Positions 2,158-48,330 of a stretch of 48,428 nucleotides of DNA are shown piece after piece (the first letter of the stretch is position 1; each line of letters begins with the position of its first letter). Position numbers and translations under genes: made by a program. Below the pieces are notes generated by a model. That model did not search any database. It was not told the DNA's origin and saw only the letters and a list, made by a program, of their open reading frames with translations. This DNA is from a virus (taxonomy: Duplodnaviria > Heunggongvirae > Uroviricota > Caudoviricetes). The DNA is taken from IMG/VR virus record IMGVR_UViG_3300045988_145381, one strand, 5' to 3'.

Positions 2158-4536
2158 TTAAACGCTCGCTACATTATACCAGGTGCCATTTATATACTTT
2201 TGAACGGGTCTGTAATAAACGCCCGCTATATTATCGGCAGAGTTGGACCCTGTATCCTGAACATTAATACCAGACAATACATGACCTGACGGGCACTGGA
2301 AATTCCATGTTTGCCAGTTGTTCACTCCATAATATTGCTGTGAACCAAGTCGAACATCTTTCACATATCTGGAATCAAAATTGCCATAGTTGCCGGGAAT
2401 AACTTGCGCACCGCAAAGCCAGTTTCCGTTATTATCCATGTACGCCTGACCATCGGTGCCATTGGCTGTCCTTGAATTATTAATCATGTAGATGCCAAAT
2501 TGCTTGTTCCCCAGTCCACCTATCATGAACTTGCGGTCGGCGTGATTCTGGCGAAGCAACGCCTGAGCGCTATCAGTGTTAACTATATTTTTCCCAAAGA
2601 TAGCGTTGTTATCGCGCATCTGAATCCACATACCATTACTGCTGTTAATAGCAAAACGGTCTGAAAGTGTCTCCCCTGAAACATTAAGACCACGCCCCAT
2701 CGAAACAGCGCCAGTAGCGTTATTAATCCATAATGGCCTTAATCCGTTATAAGTCCCCATGTTGTCACCGGAGTTTGTCAACATGAAGTATGTATTTGAA
2801 CCATCATTACGAATAAAGAATCCGTAATTACCATAAGCAATACGTAGGCCGTTTGCTGATTTTGATATGACTTCGCCATTTACAATGGCATTGACAAGAA
2901 CATACAAAGCATCCCATTTAAGATTCATCAGGTCTTTTGTTGTGGTACTTTGTTTGCTTCTCCATTTGAAATATTCATTGCCGTTGTCGCCTGTCTCAAA
3001 CCACATGTATGAATCAGTGTCACCATCGGCATCATTTTTAAATCCAATCTTCGCCCAGTCAGTATTTCGAATCCAGGCAAGGATTGAGTCATTTTCAAAA
3101 GTAAGCCCGCCGGACAAGGTATCGCCTGTCTTTTGAACGGCGTTACCAGCCTTGTTTACCGTTTCCTGTAAACCGAGGTATTCGATAACGGCAGCAACGG
3201 TCGATTTCGCAAGAATATCCCGCCCGACTTTTGTCAGGGTTGCCAGGCTGGCGACATCATTCCCCGTAAAATACGGAAACTTGTCTGCCGCAGTAGCAAG
3301 CCCGGCCAGCGCCGTCAGGGTGGCATCTTTCGGTTGCTTACCCGCAAGCGCGTTAGTCATGGTGGTCGCAAAATTCGGGTCGTTTCCCAGAGCCGCCGCT
3401 AACTCGTTCAGCGTATTCAGTGCGTCAGGTGACGAGTCCACGAGGGCAGCGATCGCAGCCATAACGAAAGCCGTGCTTGCGATTTGGGTATTATTCGTTC
3501 CCTGTCGCGCAGTTGGCGTTGTTGGCGTTCCGGTCAACGCAGGACTGTTTAAGGGCGCTTTCTTGTTCGTTTCATCCATTACCGCCTTGACCGCTTTCGA
3601 TGTCGCGGCCAGTGTTTCAGACGTGCTGTTGGTGGAACTACTGAGCTGAGTTATTCCCCTTACAGTCAGTGAAGCTACAGGCACATTTGTTATCTGCTCC
3701 CACGAATGCGTGTGATTGGACGGAGCCTTTCCGGCCGCAAGATCATACGCTGCCTTAACAGCCTTTGGTGTTGCTGCTAGCGTTTCAGACGTGCTGTTGG
3801 TGGCACTACTGAGCTGAACAATCCCTTTTCGCGCTGTGGTAGCGTCCTGTGCGGTGTATTTGCCATTAGCCAGGTCATATGCTGCCTTAACAGCCTTAGG
3901 CGTCGCAGCAAGCGTTTCAGACGAGCTATTGGTGGCGCTGCTAAGTTGAACAAAGCCTTTTGAGGTTAAAGTTGCATCAGGATGATTACGTGATTGTTCA
4001 TGTTTCACAATGGCTTGCTTAAGCCGCTTTGCTGAAACAGCAAGGGAATCATCTGTACCGTCATCAATTTCTTGTTCATTGGCAAATCTTGCAACCCCAA
4101 CAACAGTTTCGGTTGCGGGAGGATTAATAAACTCAATATCACCAAATGTAATATTTTTAGTATCAAGAGTCTTGATTGCTATGTCACTTGATATTAAAGC
4201 AATAGTAGATGATGCTTTATTTATTATTGCTTGTTCTTGCGAGTATACAGCAAACAACGTTCCCTTATTTGTATACAATCCTATTGTATGGACAACATAC
4301 TCATCTTTACTATCATCCTTCGCCGTTACATGAATTGTATCAGGGGAAACAACTTTGCCACCTATTGTGGTAAGTCGTTTTATTTCGTTTGTTATATTTG
4401 TTTGTGAAGTTGACGTGACATAATATCTACTACCTAAACCAACAGAAACAATCTCAACTTTATTTGTTCCTGTTTTGTTGGCATTAACCAGCTCCTGACG
4501 CCCGGCGTCAGTCATCGTAAATAATAATTTACTCAC
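2158..4536 (-). CDS. tail fibre protein (constant N-terminal part plus currently expressed variable C-terminal part)
   Basis: 792-aa ORF with three tandem ~33-aa repeats (G[IF][27 protein letters not shown]) typical of phage tail-fibre repeats; crossover site inside the ORF; followed by tfa. Confidence 0.85.
3155..3179. promoter_or_regulatory. DNA-invertase crossover site, right inverted repeat (inside tail fibre ORF)
   Basis: Perfect reverse complement of 103..127; falls at codons ~453-461 of the fibre. Confidence 0.75.
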
Positions 4537-29391: not shown

Positions 29392-29560
29392 ATATTTGAT
29401 CTGTTTGTCTGGTGTGGCGCCGCGCACGAAAATCCCAGCCAATAAATTCAGGATTTTTGGGCGCGGCGGCATATCAGACAAACATGGTTGATGCGTGCGC
29501 CCATAAGAAAAGCGCATAGAATGTTGTAACTATATATTTATATAATTATAGAAATATATA

Positions 29561-38655: not shown

Positions 38656-38683
38656 CTGCAAGCGGGCTAACGCCCGCTTATAT

Positions 38684-38790
38684 GATTATAGATTTATATA
38701 ATTATATAAAACGCTTTTCATCCGCCAAAAAGTTGGTTATGCTTACCTCGTTCTATAAATATAGATTTATAGAATTATATAACCAAACAC
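38684..38790. repeat. AT-rich palindromic repeats upstream of parF-like gene (candidate centromere/operator)
   Basis: Perfect 16-bp palindrome ttatataattatataa at 38694..38709 and related tatagatttatagaattatataa at 38764..38786; a third copy at 39458..39490. Confidence 0.5.
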
Positions 38791-40124: not shown

Positions 40125-40520
40125 TGTATGGCCCTTACAGGCCGTTTCACGGCATCCCCACCGACGAAAACAACGCGAGAGCAAGCACGGCTGCTTGTGC
40201 TTGCATGTACGGCAACGGAGAATCCTCCCCTAAAGTCGGTGCCCGGGTGCGAATCGGCGGGAAGGTCCACAGGTATTTTACGATTATTTTAAGATTAGTA
40301 ATAGGAAAGAAATTAAACGAAAAAACTCGTTTATTTTCACAAAATCAGTAACCTACCCACAATCTGTGAGTTTGCAGGCACAACAAGAACCACAATTTTT
40401 TGAAGCATAATAGTGGACTATTATTACCTTTTGGGTAAAATTAACTTGCTGCTTGTGCTTGCGTGGTTGTTTATACAACAACGTAATGCTGAAAGGACCG
40501 CGAATCCGATCAGCACGAAA

Positions 40521-44502: not shown

Positions 44503-44802
44503 TCAGATGTTAAACGCTATTCGTTTTCCTGTGGGAAGCTCAACATCCAGGCTTAATTTGCCTCCCATAGCTTCAACGTAACGCTTTAATGTCGCCAGCT
44601 TTAAATCATTTCCGCGCTGCTCCAGCTTTGTTACTGCTGGCTGGCTTATACCCATCGCCTCAGCAACCTGTTTTTGTGATAACTGGAGTTCTTCACGCAT
44701 CATCTGCAAGCCGACCTCAAGAATCATCTCATCTGCCATTTCTTTAATTCGCGCCTGGCTTTCCGGTGAACGGCTGGCAATCGCCTCATCTAATGTTCTC
44801 AT
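44503..44802 (-). CDS. higA: HigA-like HTH antitoxin
   Basis: 99-aa ORF with XRE-type HTH (...LSQKQVAEAMGISQPAVTKLEQ...), overlapping the stop of the upstream toxin-like gene. Confidence 0.65.
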   Translation of the reverse strand: MRTLDEAIASRSPESQARIKEMADEMILEVGLQMMREELQLSQKQVAEAMGISQPAVTKLEQRGNDLKLATLKRYVEAMGGKLSLDVELPTGKRIAFNI

Positions 44803-45155
44803 TACTTGCTCTCCAGTGTGTTCAGATGTGCTGCAAACTCATCCTCAGCTATACGCACCAGTTTTTCATAAAACCGCTTATCGTTACTTTTGTCTCCTGC
44901 ACAAAGAACGATGGCCCGGCGAATCGGATCGAACGCATAAAAGGCTCTTATCGGACGGCCAGAAAACTGAACGCGAAGCTCTTTCATATTTTTGTACCGA
45001 GAACCTTTTACGGTATCGGCATATGGCCTGGGTAACTCAGGTCCGTAAACCTGTAGCTTTTTCAAATCAGCCAAAACCTTTTCCTGAAGAGCGTCTTCTT
45101 GCTCATTTAGCCAGTCGTCAAATCGCTGGCTAAAAAGTACCGTCCACATGCTCAA
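44802..45155 (-). CDS. higB: HigB/RelE-family toxin-like protein
   Basis: 117-aa ORF upstream of and coupled to the HTH antitoxin (toxin-first order); two TATAAC-N6-GTTATA-type palindromes at 45159..45204. Confidence 0.6.
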   Translation of the reverse strand: MSMWTVLFSQRFDDWLNEQEDALQEKVLADLKKLQVYGPELPRPYADTVKGSRYKNMKELRVQFSGRPIRAFYAFDPIRRAIVLCAGDKSNDKRFYEKLVRIAEDEFAAHLNTLESK

Positions 45156-45393: not shown

Positions 45394-45684
45394 CTATTTT
45401 TGTGACTTTACTCCTGGCATATGGACTTCCCAGCGACGAATCCCCATAGCTGCGCAAAAATCAGCCACATAATTCAATCCCGCCCATTCGCGGATACCAC
45501 CACGGGCTTTTTCAATGAAAACGGCAATCCCTTTTTTATTGAGAGCAAAAAGCCGCCAGCTTTTTGTCACTTCGTCCTGGGTAGCCACAACACAAGTGAA
45601 AGCTCCCATGCGATACAGGTCCAAGAACTCTTTGCGTGTTTTGCGTACAAGTTCCATAACAAACCTCATATTTGCATGTTTCAA
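45394..45684 (-). CDS. hypothetical protein
   Basis: 96-aa ORF coupled to the upstream HTH gene. Confidence 0.4.
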   Translation of the reverse strand: MKHANMRFVMELVRKTRKEFLDLYRMGAFTCVVATQDEVTKSWRLFALNKKGIAVFIEKARGGIREWAGLNYVADFCAAMGIRRWEVHMPGVKSQK

Positions 45685-45980
45685 ACATCTGTTTTGTTAT
45701 CAATGAAGATTAACCCTAACCCAGCGAAGTAACACAGCAGCGCCCAGGCTGCATACGGAATGCTGGATCTGGATGTGGACTCCTTTAACATCTGCCAGTT
45801 GCGAACATTGCGACTATCTTTTAAGCCAAGTTTTTTGGCCAACTGCGAGCCGCTCATTCCGGTCAGGCCAATGACTGCCCGAACTTCTCCACATGTAGGA
45901 GATTCCCATTCATCCGCTTTTTTTAAACAAGCCGGATTCAACATTTTTAAAACAGTATCTTTATCCATAACCATCTCCAT
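45681..45980 (-). CDS. HTH-domain protein with hydrophobic C-terminus
   Basis: 99-aa ORF; HTH-like ...GMSGSQLAKKLGLKDSRNVRNWQ... and C-terminal ...AAWALLCYFAGLGLIF... Confidence 0.45.
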   Translation of the reverse strand: MEMVMDKDTVLKMLNPACLKKADEWESPTCGEVRAVIGLTGMSGSQLAKKLGLKDSRNVRNWQMLKESTSRSSIPYAAWALLCYFAGLGLIFIDNKTDV

Positions 45981-46379
45981 TTATTATATCTACGATGGTA
46001 GGAAATCTTTTCCTATGTGGCAATAGAAATTTACTACATTGCGTATAAGACAAGTTTTCTATGTCTAATAGGAAATGATGTTTCTTACGTTTTATCGCGT
46101 TCTGATGGCTACTGTGTGCGTATTTATCGACGTTTATTGATAAGGCTCGCCCCTTCCTCCTGCAAAGCCCGGCCGTAGGCCTTATTTCGGCCTTATATAA
46201 ATTGATTTTGTATAGTTCGAAACGCGCCGTTTCGAAAAGGATGATCAGGCTGCTCCATGCCTCCGGCAAGTGCCGGAGGAGGTATATTTGAGCGTAGCGA
46301 CTCGAACCGGCGCGAGCTTTAGCTCGCTGCAAGGGCGAACATATTCACAGGCAAAGCCTGCGTAAGTTAAATAAAGAAA

Positions 46380-46611
46380 GTTTTAATAAAAGAAAGTGAT
46401 TTTGCATTTATTTGTTTAGTGCATCTATTATAAAAAACCATTTGCATATACATATCAAAACTGTGGATAACTTTATTAGCCGATGCCTGTAAAGGCGATA
46501 TTTTTGCTGTGTTCAGGTTTAGAGAAAATTAATTTAGATTGTTTTTTGAACAGATATTTTATTGCGACGTAGATAATCCTCCGGTAAAACCGGATTCATC
46601 ATTCAGGTGGG
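46380..46611. promoter_or_regulatory. candidate replication origin (AT-rich region with DnaA box) downstream of repA
   Basis: tgtggataa (reverse complement of TTATCCACA) at 46462..46470 within an AT-rich stretch about 140 bp beyond the repA stop. Confidence 0.45.
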
Positions 46612-47451
46612 TTAATGTTGGAGTGATTTCCAGGTCTTTCTTAGCCTGTTATAACGCTGCTCAACGAGGGAGCGTAAATATGCAAGGTCAGCACCAGGAT
46701 ACATGCCATCAGCAAATTCCTGGCTAACCTCTCTAGTGATTTGATGGCGAAGTTCGGCCTCTCCCTTTTCCTGAACAAGACGCGCAGCTCTCTCCGCTGC
46801 TTTCTGTTTTGCCTTTATCTCTCTGGCCGTCTTCCTCTGACGCCATACATTCTCCATCTGCTCCTGAATAACAATACGCTTATAATCAGCCTCCGTTATC
46901 GCTTTTTTAAGCCGTTCGCTATTCTTCGCATTGAAGTAATTAAGTTTCTGGCTAACCGCACGTCTCCATGCTTGTTCAGTAATACCAACTGTTTCCAGCA
47001 GTTGATCACGAATCTCGATTTTCGCTGGCCAATACTGTTTATTCACCCGATCCCAGCGACGTTCATAATCAATAAAACCTAACTCTTTCAGTTGCGACAA
47101 CGCCCTTGTACAGCGCGTTATAGACTTGTTCCCAGCTTCGGATACGGTAGACAGGCCGCAAAAATCAGCCAACGCCTCAGCACTGGCCAGAACCCGCTTA
47201 GAAATGATGTTTACATGGTGCAAAATCGCAGCAATCACAGCATTAATCGCCCGACGACGATGCTCGTTTATCCGGCGTTTCCGCTCTGACGGTTGATTAA
47301 CGTAGAACGCAACCTCACACGTAAGATCACGACCATTAATGCGCTGTAAAGCATCAGATAACACCAGCGGCAGCTTGTGCGTATGGTGCTTTGGAGGCTG
47401 GAACTCCGGCGACAAATTACAAACGTAAGCTGAACGTAGAGACGGCATTGG
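46612..47451 (-). CDS. repA: IncFII-type replication initiator RepA
   Basis: ORF 46612..47604 trimmed to MDRPMPSLRS...; strong resemblance to R100/R1 RepA1 as recalled (...KSITRCTRALSQLKELGFIDYE...). Confidence 0.75.
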   Translation of the reverse strand, partial: PMPSLRSAYVCNLSPEFQPPKHHTHKLPLVLSDALQRINGRDLTCEVAFYVNQPSERKRRINEHRRRAINAVIAAILHHVNIISKRVLASAEALADFCGLSTVSEAGNKSITRCTRALSQLKELGFIDYERRWDRVNKQYWPAKIEIRDQLLETVGITEQAWRRAVSQKLNYFNAKNSERLKKAITEADYKRIVIQEQMENVWRQRKTAREIKAKQKAAERAARLVQEKGEAELRHQITREVSQEFADGMYPGADLAYLRSLVEQRYNRLRKTWKSLQH

Positions 47452-47494
47452 TCTATCCATATGTTCGCTCTTGCGTCCACGGAAAACCAACGTA

Positions 47495-47576
47495 TAATGG
47501 GAGTTGTCGAGGCGCCCATGGTTAGTTGTTGGTTTTCCTTTCCGTGGATGTCGCAAGAAGCCCGCAGATTTATCTG
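47495..47576 (+). ncRNA. candidate antisense RNA to the repA leader (CopA-like)
   Basis: Plus-strand TTGCGT-16bp-TATAAT promoter at 47461..47488, long imperfect stem, terminator hairpin gcccgcagatttatctgcgggc plus ttttt at 47548..47576. Confidence 0.45.
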
Positions 47577-47775
47577 CGGGCTTTTTGTTTCCATATCTGG
47601 TCACTTTTCAACCAGACACCCACAATCATAACCACGTTACGTGGTTTTAAGAGAACTCTACCACAACACTTTCGGTCATGCACGAAGTCTCTCACTGATC
47701 GAACGATAATCCACCAGTAAAAGGATCTAAATTGGATCTCGTTTTGCGAGCATCATACTACTGGCCTAACTCCAG

Positions 47776-48330
47776 TCAATGATTCCCAGCCGGAAACCTG
47801 CGGTAAAGCGTGGATAAGGTAACATCGAAGATAATCGCTATCCGCTTACGTGAAACACCATTCGCAATAAGCCTTCCGATCTGTTCCCATTGCTCTGGTG
47901 CCAATTTTGAGCGGCGTCCTCCTATCCTGCCGTTAGCCCTTGCCACCGCCAATCCTGCACGCGTTCTTTCAATCATATTTTCCCGCTCCATCTCTGCGAC
48001 TGCACTCAGCATCGTGTAGGCAAAGCGGCCAATTGAAGTGCTAATTTTTATCCCTTCCGTAATCGAAATAAACTCAATGTTGTTTGATAAAAAATAGTTT
48101 AGTAAATCAACAAGATGAATCAGAGAACGCCCCATTCGGTCCAGCTTCCAGACAATAACCGTATCGCCCGGCCGTAACACCTTCAGTAGCTTATCAAGTC
48201 CTGGTCGTTTTGATTTAGCACCGGATATTTTATCTTCAAAAATCCGGTCACATCCTGAACTCCTGAGCGCCTCCAATTGTAATTCCAAATTCTGGTCAAA
48301 AGTTGACACCCTCGCATAACCATATTGCAT
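47776..48330 (-). CDS. serine DNA invertase (Hin/Gin/Cin/Pin family)
   Basis: 184-aa ORF MQYGYARVSTFDQNLELQLEAL...DRMGRS... with catalytic Ser motif and C-terminal HTH; start wraps to window position 30; crossover site upstream. Confidence 0.9.
   Translation of the reverse strand: MQYGYARVSTFDQNLELQLEALRSSGCDRIFEDKISGAKSKRPGLDKLLKVLRPGDTVIVWKLDRMGRSLIHLVDLLNYFLSNNIEFISITEGIKISTSIGRFAYTMLSAVAEMERENMIERTRAGLAVARANGRIGGRRSKLAPEQWEQIGRLIANGVSRKRIAIIFDVTLSTLYRRFPAGNH

Follow-up and report, generated by a model that had tools for sequence, protein, structure and literature searches.

Candidate primase-only priming site within a conserved hairpin module beside the IncFII-type origin of an Escherichia coli phage-plasmid

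What are three perfect hairpins doing side by side next to a replication origin? The question is raised by the IMG/VR virus record IMGVR_UViG_3300045988_145381, a stretch of 48,428 nucleotides (nt) that was analysed at its full length and is referred to here as the window. Its plus strand contains hairpin 1 (46216-46224/46228-46236; TTCGAAACG-CGC-CGTTTCGAA, 9 perfect base pairs and a 3-nt loop), hairpin 2 (46260-46268/46271-46279; CCTCCGGCA/TGCCGGAGG, 9 perfect base pairs and a 2-nt loop, the sterically realistic form being 8 bp with a 4-nt loop), and hairpin 3 (46312-46318/46321-46327; GCGAGCT/AGCTCGC, 7 bp and a 2-nt loop, or alternatively 6 bp with a TTTA loop). A preliminary description of the locus had listed the same three perfect repeats, all of which are present, with the loop of hairpin 2 ('agt') placed off by one base, and had taken the cluster for a single-strand initiation (ssi) or primosome assembly site beside the origin, or else for a structured RNA. 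The comparisons reported here make it reasonably probable that positions 46260-46337, and possibly the longer stretch 46216-46337, would serve on the plus strand, as single-stranded DNA (ssDNA), as an initiation signal of the phage G4 type that is used by DnaG primase alone, i.e., a G site. The cluster is read in this way because of its G4-like layout, a CTG trinucleotide, the strand on which both are found, and the analogy to plasmid R1.

The surroundings are those of an origin of incompatibility group FII (IncFII). The initiator gene repA is an open reading frame (ORF) of 330 codons on the minus strand (46612-47604; Pfam IncFII_repA, PF02387, E = 5.5e-44), which is annotated in identical plasmids as 46612-47460, with its start at 47460 (RefSeq NZ_AP025749.1). 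Since repA lies on the minus strand, transcription of the gene runs towards the hairpins, which are situated downstream, 285 bp past the stop codon, just as the preliminary description had placed them; their closeness to a DnaA box holds as well. Along the minus strand, the repA stop codon is followed by 142 bp, a perfect DnaA box (46462-46470, minus; TGTGGATAA on the plus strand and thus TTATCCACA on the minus strand), about 120 bp of AT-rich DNA, and then the hairpins. The AT-rich origin core (46340-46461, minus), the presumed region of RepA binding and unwinding, has 75% A+T over 46352-46461, contains two direct repeats (TTAAATAAAGAAAGT and TTAATAAAAGAAAGT) as well as TTTGCAT repeats, and is almost unchanged between the Escherichia and Salmonella relatives. 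An IncFII-family RepA, a downstream DnaA box, and an AT-rich region are thus all present, arranged in the order known for oriR of R1. In plasmid R1, replication starts at oriR and is unidirectional, and RepA binds at a place just downstream of the DnaA box (PMC5883639). Since the window has repA on its minus strand, its forks would by analogy run leftwards from the origin, and the plus strand should then be the leading-strand template. The GC skew of the plus strand is negative over almost the whole window, which is compatible with one-directional leftward replication, a weak support that is confounded by gene orientation.

Comparison with relatives showed that only hairpins 2 and 3, and not hairpin 1, belong to a widely conserved module of about 80 nt, in which they are named hairpin II and hairpin I, respectively. 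On the plus strand, from 5' to 3', the module consists of hairpin II, a GGGWGSTA motif, a spacer, CGAACCGGCGCG, hairpin I, and CGCTGCAAGGGCG. In the window, the GGGWGSTA motif reads GGAGGTAT (46278-46285, plus) and stands directly 3' of hairpin II; its columns are nearly invariant in alignment A3, which holds 74 sequences that were gathered by a DNA pattern and are biased towards the consensus of the block. The spacer block GAGCGTAGCGAC (46290-46301, plus; A3 columns 101-116) is shared without a change by the Salmonella, Pantoea, and L011 lineages, and other subfamilies have in its place a small GGCGC-AAA-GCGCC hairpin. The 5' flank of hairpin I, CGAACCGGC (46303-46311, plus), is invariant in the 74 sequences, partly imposed by the search pattern, and was also recovered by plain blastn in approximately 3,000 plasmids. 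On the 3' side, the stem is followed by the module element TGCAAGGGCG (46328-46337, plus), and CTGCAAGGGCG (46327-46337, plus) contains, read directly, the predicted primase initiation trinucleotide, a CTG at 46327-46329 that is made up of the last stem base of hairpin 3 plus TG.

The module is spread well beyond the close relatives of the window. In sensitive blastn searches, Salmonella phage-plasmids matched the whole hairpin region at 75% identity, and in Pantoea/Serratia IncFII plasmids only a block of 40-50 nt around hairpin 3 was common (87-95% identity). A 76-nt query around hairpin 3 retrieved 3,142 PLSDB records by blastn from at least ten genera, e.g., Klebsiella, Salmonella, Escherichia, Enterobacter, Citrobacter, Yersinia, Serratia, and Pantoea, and a degenerate pattern scan found 68 loci in GTDB species-representative genomes, nearly all of them Enterobacterales. 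The position is kept too: an IncFII-type RepA ORF is present on the opposite strand in 66 of 79 sites, in the same orientation in all 66, with 282-621 bp (median 380) from the RepA stop to the CTG. Eight of the remaining 13 sites are at contig ends, with less than 900 bp on the repA side, and at a ninth, L009, the origin is cut by IS1. Of the 79 family sites, 39 have a DnaA box at a distance of 135-204 nt from the CTG. The RepA proteins of five compared replicons have 16-33% identity to RepA of the window (86% for a close Salmonella relative), and because the DNA block is far better conserved than the RepA that accompanies it, this pattern points to a host factor as its presumable reader.

Perfect hairpins as such (stem of at least 7 bp, loop of 2-6 nt) are about three times as frequent in the window as in 300 dinucleotide-preserving shuffles (40 distinct hairpins vs 14.4 ± 3.7), and three of them within 120 nt of each other were found anywhere in 7 of the 300 shuffled windows, the real window having two such clusters. 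The hairpins of the module are distinguished by their covariation. Over both stems, 98.7% of the pair cells in A3 are standard pairs, against 33-60% when the partners are slid, and the covariation score of 0.422 was reached in none of 500 shuffles (0.171 ± 0.010); double-sided changes amount to 131 cells. In hairpin I, pair 134/143 is GC in 46 and AU in 28 of the 74 sequences, pair 135/142 is AU in 48, CG in 16, and GC in 10, and pair 136/141 is CG in 71, GC in 2, and UG in 1; no broken hairpin I pair was found among the 74. Hairpin II (A3 columns 61-67 and 75-81), with 97.6% of its cells paired and double-sided changes in five of its seven pairs, is, to judge from these columns, kept as a structure and not as a sequence. 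Its non-Watson-Crick cells are 42 G·T vs 5 A·C, and this excess places the conserved pairing on the plus strand, the one that carries the CTG, whereas the pairing would break on the minus strand. Single-nucleotide polymorphisms among close relatives fall in loops and spacers, with none in the stems, and as ssDNA the plus strand of 46200-46345 folds at -30.4 kcal/mol (z = -3.5), compared with -28.2 kcal/mol (z = -2.7) for the minus strand. Covariation, G·T excess, and fold z-scores thus agree on selected stem-loops in one strand within some 100-140 nt, as is typical of a G site.

E. coli primase starts preferentially at CTG trinucleotides, as was reportedly described in 1991 and again in 1993. 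In the window, the CTG abuts hairpin 3 on the 3' side of the stem-loop. In a metagenome scan that left the five bases after hairpin I free, these were CTGCA at 63 sites, CAGCA at 3, CTGCG at 1, and CTGTA at 1, i.e., CTG at 65 of 68 unconstrained sites; the count is confined to these 68 sites, at which hairpin I is intact, the loose pattern having mostly yielded chance matches in GC-rich contigs. The metagenome loci L109, L136, and L184 are typical copies of the module with CAG for CTG after hairpin I (CGCAGCAAGGGCG). The layout resembles that of oric of phage G4 (NC_001420), in which three stem-loops over about 105 nt are followed by CTACTGCAAAG, and in which the annotated primer starts at the CTG of CTACTGCAAAG and runs back through stem-loop I. 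Like G4, the window has three hairpins over 114 nt of one strand and then CTGCAAGG, and the two share CTGCAA(A/G)G on the 3' side of their stem-loops, the primer-start sequence of G4 being CTGCAAAG. The G4 signal primes the viral complementary strand, whereas the element in the window would prime the leading strand of a plasmid. A likeness of GAGCGTAGCGA to the origin-proximal region of p15A/ColE1 was considered and dropped, since the motif and the CTG would there lie on different strands.

If the module is used as in G4, initiation would proceed as follows. RepA, together with DnaA at 46462-46470, would open the AT-rich core at 46340-46461, and DnaB would be loaded, as established for R1, after which the helicase would move leftwards, away from repA (unidirectionality is established for R1 and extrapolated to the window). 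Plus strand 46216-46340 would become single-stranded, and the hairpins would snap back and may stay free of SSB, as in G4. DnaG would then recognise the module formed by hairpins I and II with their invariant flanks, and a primer beginning pppAG would start opposite T46328 of the CTG at 46327-46329 and copy leftwards through hairpin 3. Finally, DNA polymerase III would extend this primer as the leading strand.

The nearest precedent is the G site of R1/R100, which is said to lie downstream of oriR and to have the leading strand primed by primase alone (as described in 1989). Its in vivo leading-strand start was reportedly mapped in 1992, and G-site blocks A-C are said to have been described in 1994. 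The R100 G site and the module in the window belong to the same replicon family (IncFII RepA, DnaA box, AT-rich core), and they share the same side of the origin, the same predicted template strand, and the same proposed job. They differ in distance: the R100 G site is reported about 400 bp from oriR, whereas the CTG of the window is 135 bp from the DnaA box and abuts the AT-rich core. Full-text literature searches yielded no open paper giving G-site sequences. A covariance model built from the module gives the window a score of 80.8 bits. With filters off, it gave no match in R100 at L005 40257-40360, about 400 bp past oriR, which we take to be the place of the classical G site, and none in G4 at 3890-4000, where only the CTGCAA motif is shared. 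A function like that of a G site is thus supported by position, strand, structure, and the CTG, and homology to the defined G site was not found.

R100 has, at the position of the module, only part of it. Right after its AT-rich core (L005 39987-40095, minus), the covariance model matches at 25.5 bits over the 5' half only, in which a Ter-like site (GAGTGTTGTAACTA), hairpin II, and GGGAGGT are retained. The R100 oriR has no counterpart to about 51 positions of the model, i.e., CGAACCGGCGCG, hairpin I, and the CTG (CTGCAAGGGCG), and the missing segment is carried by nearly all other IncFII-type origins examined (comparison with L008-L013). R100 therefore appears to have lost a half of the module that most of its relatives keep.

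Several of these results weigh against a G4-type priming signal. As R100 is without hairpin I and the CTG, the module is dispensable for at least one IncFII replicon. Neither G4 oric nor the presumed G-site region of R100 matches the covariance model. The geometry also departs from that of G4, whose CTG stands 3 nt beyond stem-loop I, whereas in the window the C of the CTG closes the stem of hairpin I. CAG replaces CTG at 3 of the 68 sites sampled without bias. Much of the invariance in A3 is imposed by the search pattern, and the A3 sequences are related, so that the cell counts given above exceed the number of independent events. Hairpin 1, lastly, is supported by two lineages only. The initial proposal of an ssi site beside an IncFII origin nevertheless fits the comparative evidence, namely the position, orientation, covariation, strand, CTG, and G4-like layout, with hairpin 1 falling outside the widely conserved module. 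In the comparison with IncFII origins and ssi sequences that had been suggested, the origin setting agreed and the core of the module recurred in repeats of F and R100, and no homology to G4 oric or to the R100 region 400 bp past oriR was found.

This core, CGGCGCG-ACC-loop-GGT-CGCTGCAA, was found with the covariance model at three sites in the leading region of R100 (L082; 30103-30128, 33409-33433, and 47982-48006, all minus) and at two in that of F (L209; 8184-8209 and 13573-13598, both minus). The matches are short, covering about 25 nt of the model, with E = 0.016-0.04. All five are on the transferred strand, as deduced from oriT and gene orientation; they lie inside near-identical repeats of about 285 nt upstream of ssb and other early genes, and they are preceded by a GC hairpin and GGGAGC, as in the origin module. 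The leading regions of F and R100 act as ssDNA (Frpo/ssi), and the 285-nt repeats look like such Frpo/ssi single-strand elements. These repeats belong to conjugative leading regions, whereas the module in the window stands at a vegetative origin. The leading-region cores nevertheless provide an independent fit to a reading of the core at the level of ssDNA. In bioRxiv 10.64898/2026.01.09.698686, leading-region ssi repeats are reported, with reference to Masai & Arai 1997, to be used by RNA polymerase.

A different explanation is that the palindromes, and mainly hairpin 1, act as duplex DNA, i.e., as operators, as a boundary of unwinding, or as a fork-pausing element. The 21 bp of hairpin 1 form a perfect palindrome such as dimeric helix-turn-helix (HTH) proteins bind, an HTH-like ORF of 99 amino acids (aa) adjoins the region (45681-45980, minus), a Ter-like protein-binding site takes the position of hairpin 1 in FII-type relatives, and R100 can replicate in spite of lacking hairpin I and the CTG. 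However, this explanation is at odds with the compensatory sequence changes, the variable loop lengths, and the tolerance of G·T on one strand only that are seen in hairpins 2 and 3, and also with the fact that hairpin 1 is unique in the window, the promoter-proximal repeats of the neighbouring gene being different (TAGGAAA). A duplex function for the cluster is therefore considered rather unlikely. A repeated operator was rejected in particular, hairpin 1 being single-copy, with no second copy anywhere in the window. Between 45995 and 46080, TAGGAAA/TTTCCTA and ATAGAAA/TTTCTAT repeats surround the sole promoter-like site (-35 at 46023, minus), and these repeats, which lie upstream of the 99-aa HTH-like ORF, are probably its operator.

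Hairpin 1 itself is confined to the Escherichia/Salmonella phage-plasmid clade. Its stem is kept in the Salmonella relatives, in which the loop and both flanks diverge, and in the Escherichia relatives its variation is confined to the loop base (alignment A4). It may belong to the priming signal as an accessory third stem-loop, or it may be an unrelated palindrome to which a protein binds. The wider family has a Ter-like GAATGTTGTAACTA there instead, 60-80 nt 5' of the module in most FII-type relatives (L008-L081; e.g., L012 at about 1440-1455), and with the Tus/Ter polarity that we assume, it would stop forks returning to the origin. R100 has a second, inverted GAATGTTGTAACTA at 40208-40223. 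No Ter site, such as R1/R100 have beside the origin, was found near the window origin, GTTGTAAC occurring once in the window, at 29523.

The hairpins could also be a PriA-dependent primosome assembly site of the phiX174 type (n'-site), at which PriA binds the hairpins and assembles PriB, DnaT, and DnaB-DnaC together with primase. The position, strand preference, and covariation of the stems would fit any signal that is read on ssDNA, and clusters of stem-loops are generally known near plasmid origins such as that of ColE1. To our knowledge, however, such sites have neither a conserved trinucleotide nor a sequence consensus, and the near-invariant CTGCAAGGGCG and the G4-like CTGCAAAG are better explained by primase. 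Assembly by PriA is thus held to be unlikely.

The structured RNA that had been offered as the other possibility (a small RNA, a leader, or terminators of neighbouring genes) fares worse and is regarded as very improbable. Strand-specific structure would be expected of an RNA too, and on the plus strand hairpin 2 receives a terminator-like score, AGGTATATTT serving as its tail. However, 46200-46350 has no Rfam match at E values up to 1, and 45600-46800 contains no plus-strand promoter-like site; the sole promoter-like site there drives the minus-strand gene at 45980, downstream of the hairpins. In relatives, moreover, the supposed tail is the conserved GGGAGCTAC of the GGGWGSTA motif and not a T-run, and a Ter-like site lies immediately upstream in those of FII type. 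Rho-independent terminators were rejected, as hairpin 2 scores weakly and hairpins 1 and 3 are without a T-run. A chance grouping of GC-rich palindromes or a coding remnant is effectively refuted, since, in spite of the few shuffles that produced such a cluster and of the two overlapping ORFs (123 aa, 45961-46332, minus; 31 aa, plus), conservation across genera with compensatory changes excludes chance, no gene is annotated there in RefSeq records, and both reading frames are disrupted by single-nucleotide indels that distinguish Escherichia from Salmonella.

The replicon to which the candidate priming site belongs can be identified from its relatives. Positions 46100-46620 have 97.5-100% identity to 59 non-mobilizable plasmids, nearly all of 46-52 kb, from Escherichia (E. 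coli, E. fergusonii, and E. albertii) and, in one case, Klebsiella aerogenes; the 48-kb plasmid of E. coli ATCC 25922 (NZ_CP037450.1) is among these relatives, with approximately 98% identity over the same positions. The Yersinia phages vB_YpM_39, 41, and 44 (OR545053-55) have 99-100% identity to the hairpin stretch 46200-46345. In these relatives, repA is neighboured by a gene for a Hin-like invertase, and a gene for a Rha-family regulator lies some 4 kb away from the hairpins. Given the plasmid and Yersinia phage matches together with the invertase and Rha-family genes, the window is an E. coli phage-plasmid of about 48 kb with an IncFII-type replicon. In the window, the Hin-like invertase is at 47776-48330, and a Gp49/HigB-HTH toxin-antitoxin pair is at 44503-45155.

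Two further structured regions were noted. Antisense to the leader of repA, 47470-47590 (plus) has a very stable two-stem RNA fold (-63.8 kcal/mol, z = -8.3) with a strong terminator at its end, made up of GCCCGCAGAT-TTAT-CTGCGGGC and a T-run. An Rfam search of 47470-47590 gave no CopA match and only a sub-threshold Thr_leader hit, which was caused by the terminator; the region is probably the CopA-like copy-number antisense RNA of the replicon. Apart from the cluster beside the origin, three perfect hairpins occur close together only at 38660-38774, where a GC-rich, terminator-like AAGCGGGC-TAAC-GCCCGCTT is followed by the AT-rich palindromes TTTATATAATTATATAAA and TTCTATAAATATAGATTTATAGAA; this second cluster looks like a terminator plus an operator/promoter region.

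The kind of element proposed here has been known since the late 1980s, and a specialist would find little in it that is unexpected. What is of moderate interest to those who study plasmids is that it is widely conserved, is absent from R1/R100, and has an echo in conjugative leading regions. For the common family of approximately 48-kb E. coli/Salmonella phage-plasmids, a leading-strand start is predicted at about T46328 on the plus strand, and in thousands of IncFII-type resistance and virulence plasmids, the module provides a compact signature of sequence and structure from which the origin can be located and the direction of replication predicted. R1/R100, without the half that holds hairpin I and the CTG, would be atypical in this respect, which matters when results obtained with R1 are generalised. 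More tentatively, and with a good deal less confidence than the priming role itself, the module may be a hitherto undescribed 'plasmid-type' recognition signal for primase or ssDNA, an ancestral leading-strand start of the IncFII superfamily that was lost from R1/R100 and whose core is common to the Frpo/ssi elements, or it may be read by another host factor on the unwound origin DNA. If the former is true, one ssDNA signal read by the host would serve both vegetative initiation and establishment after conjugation.

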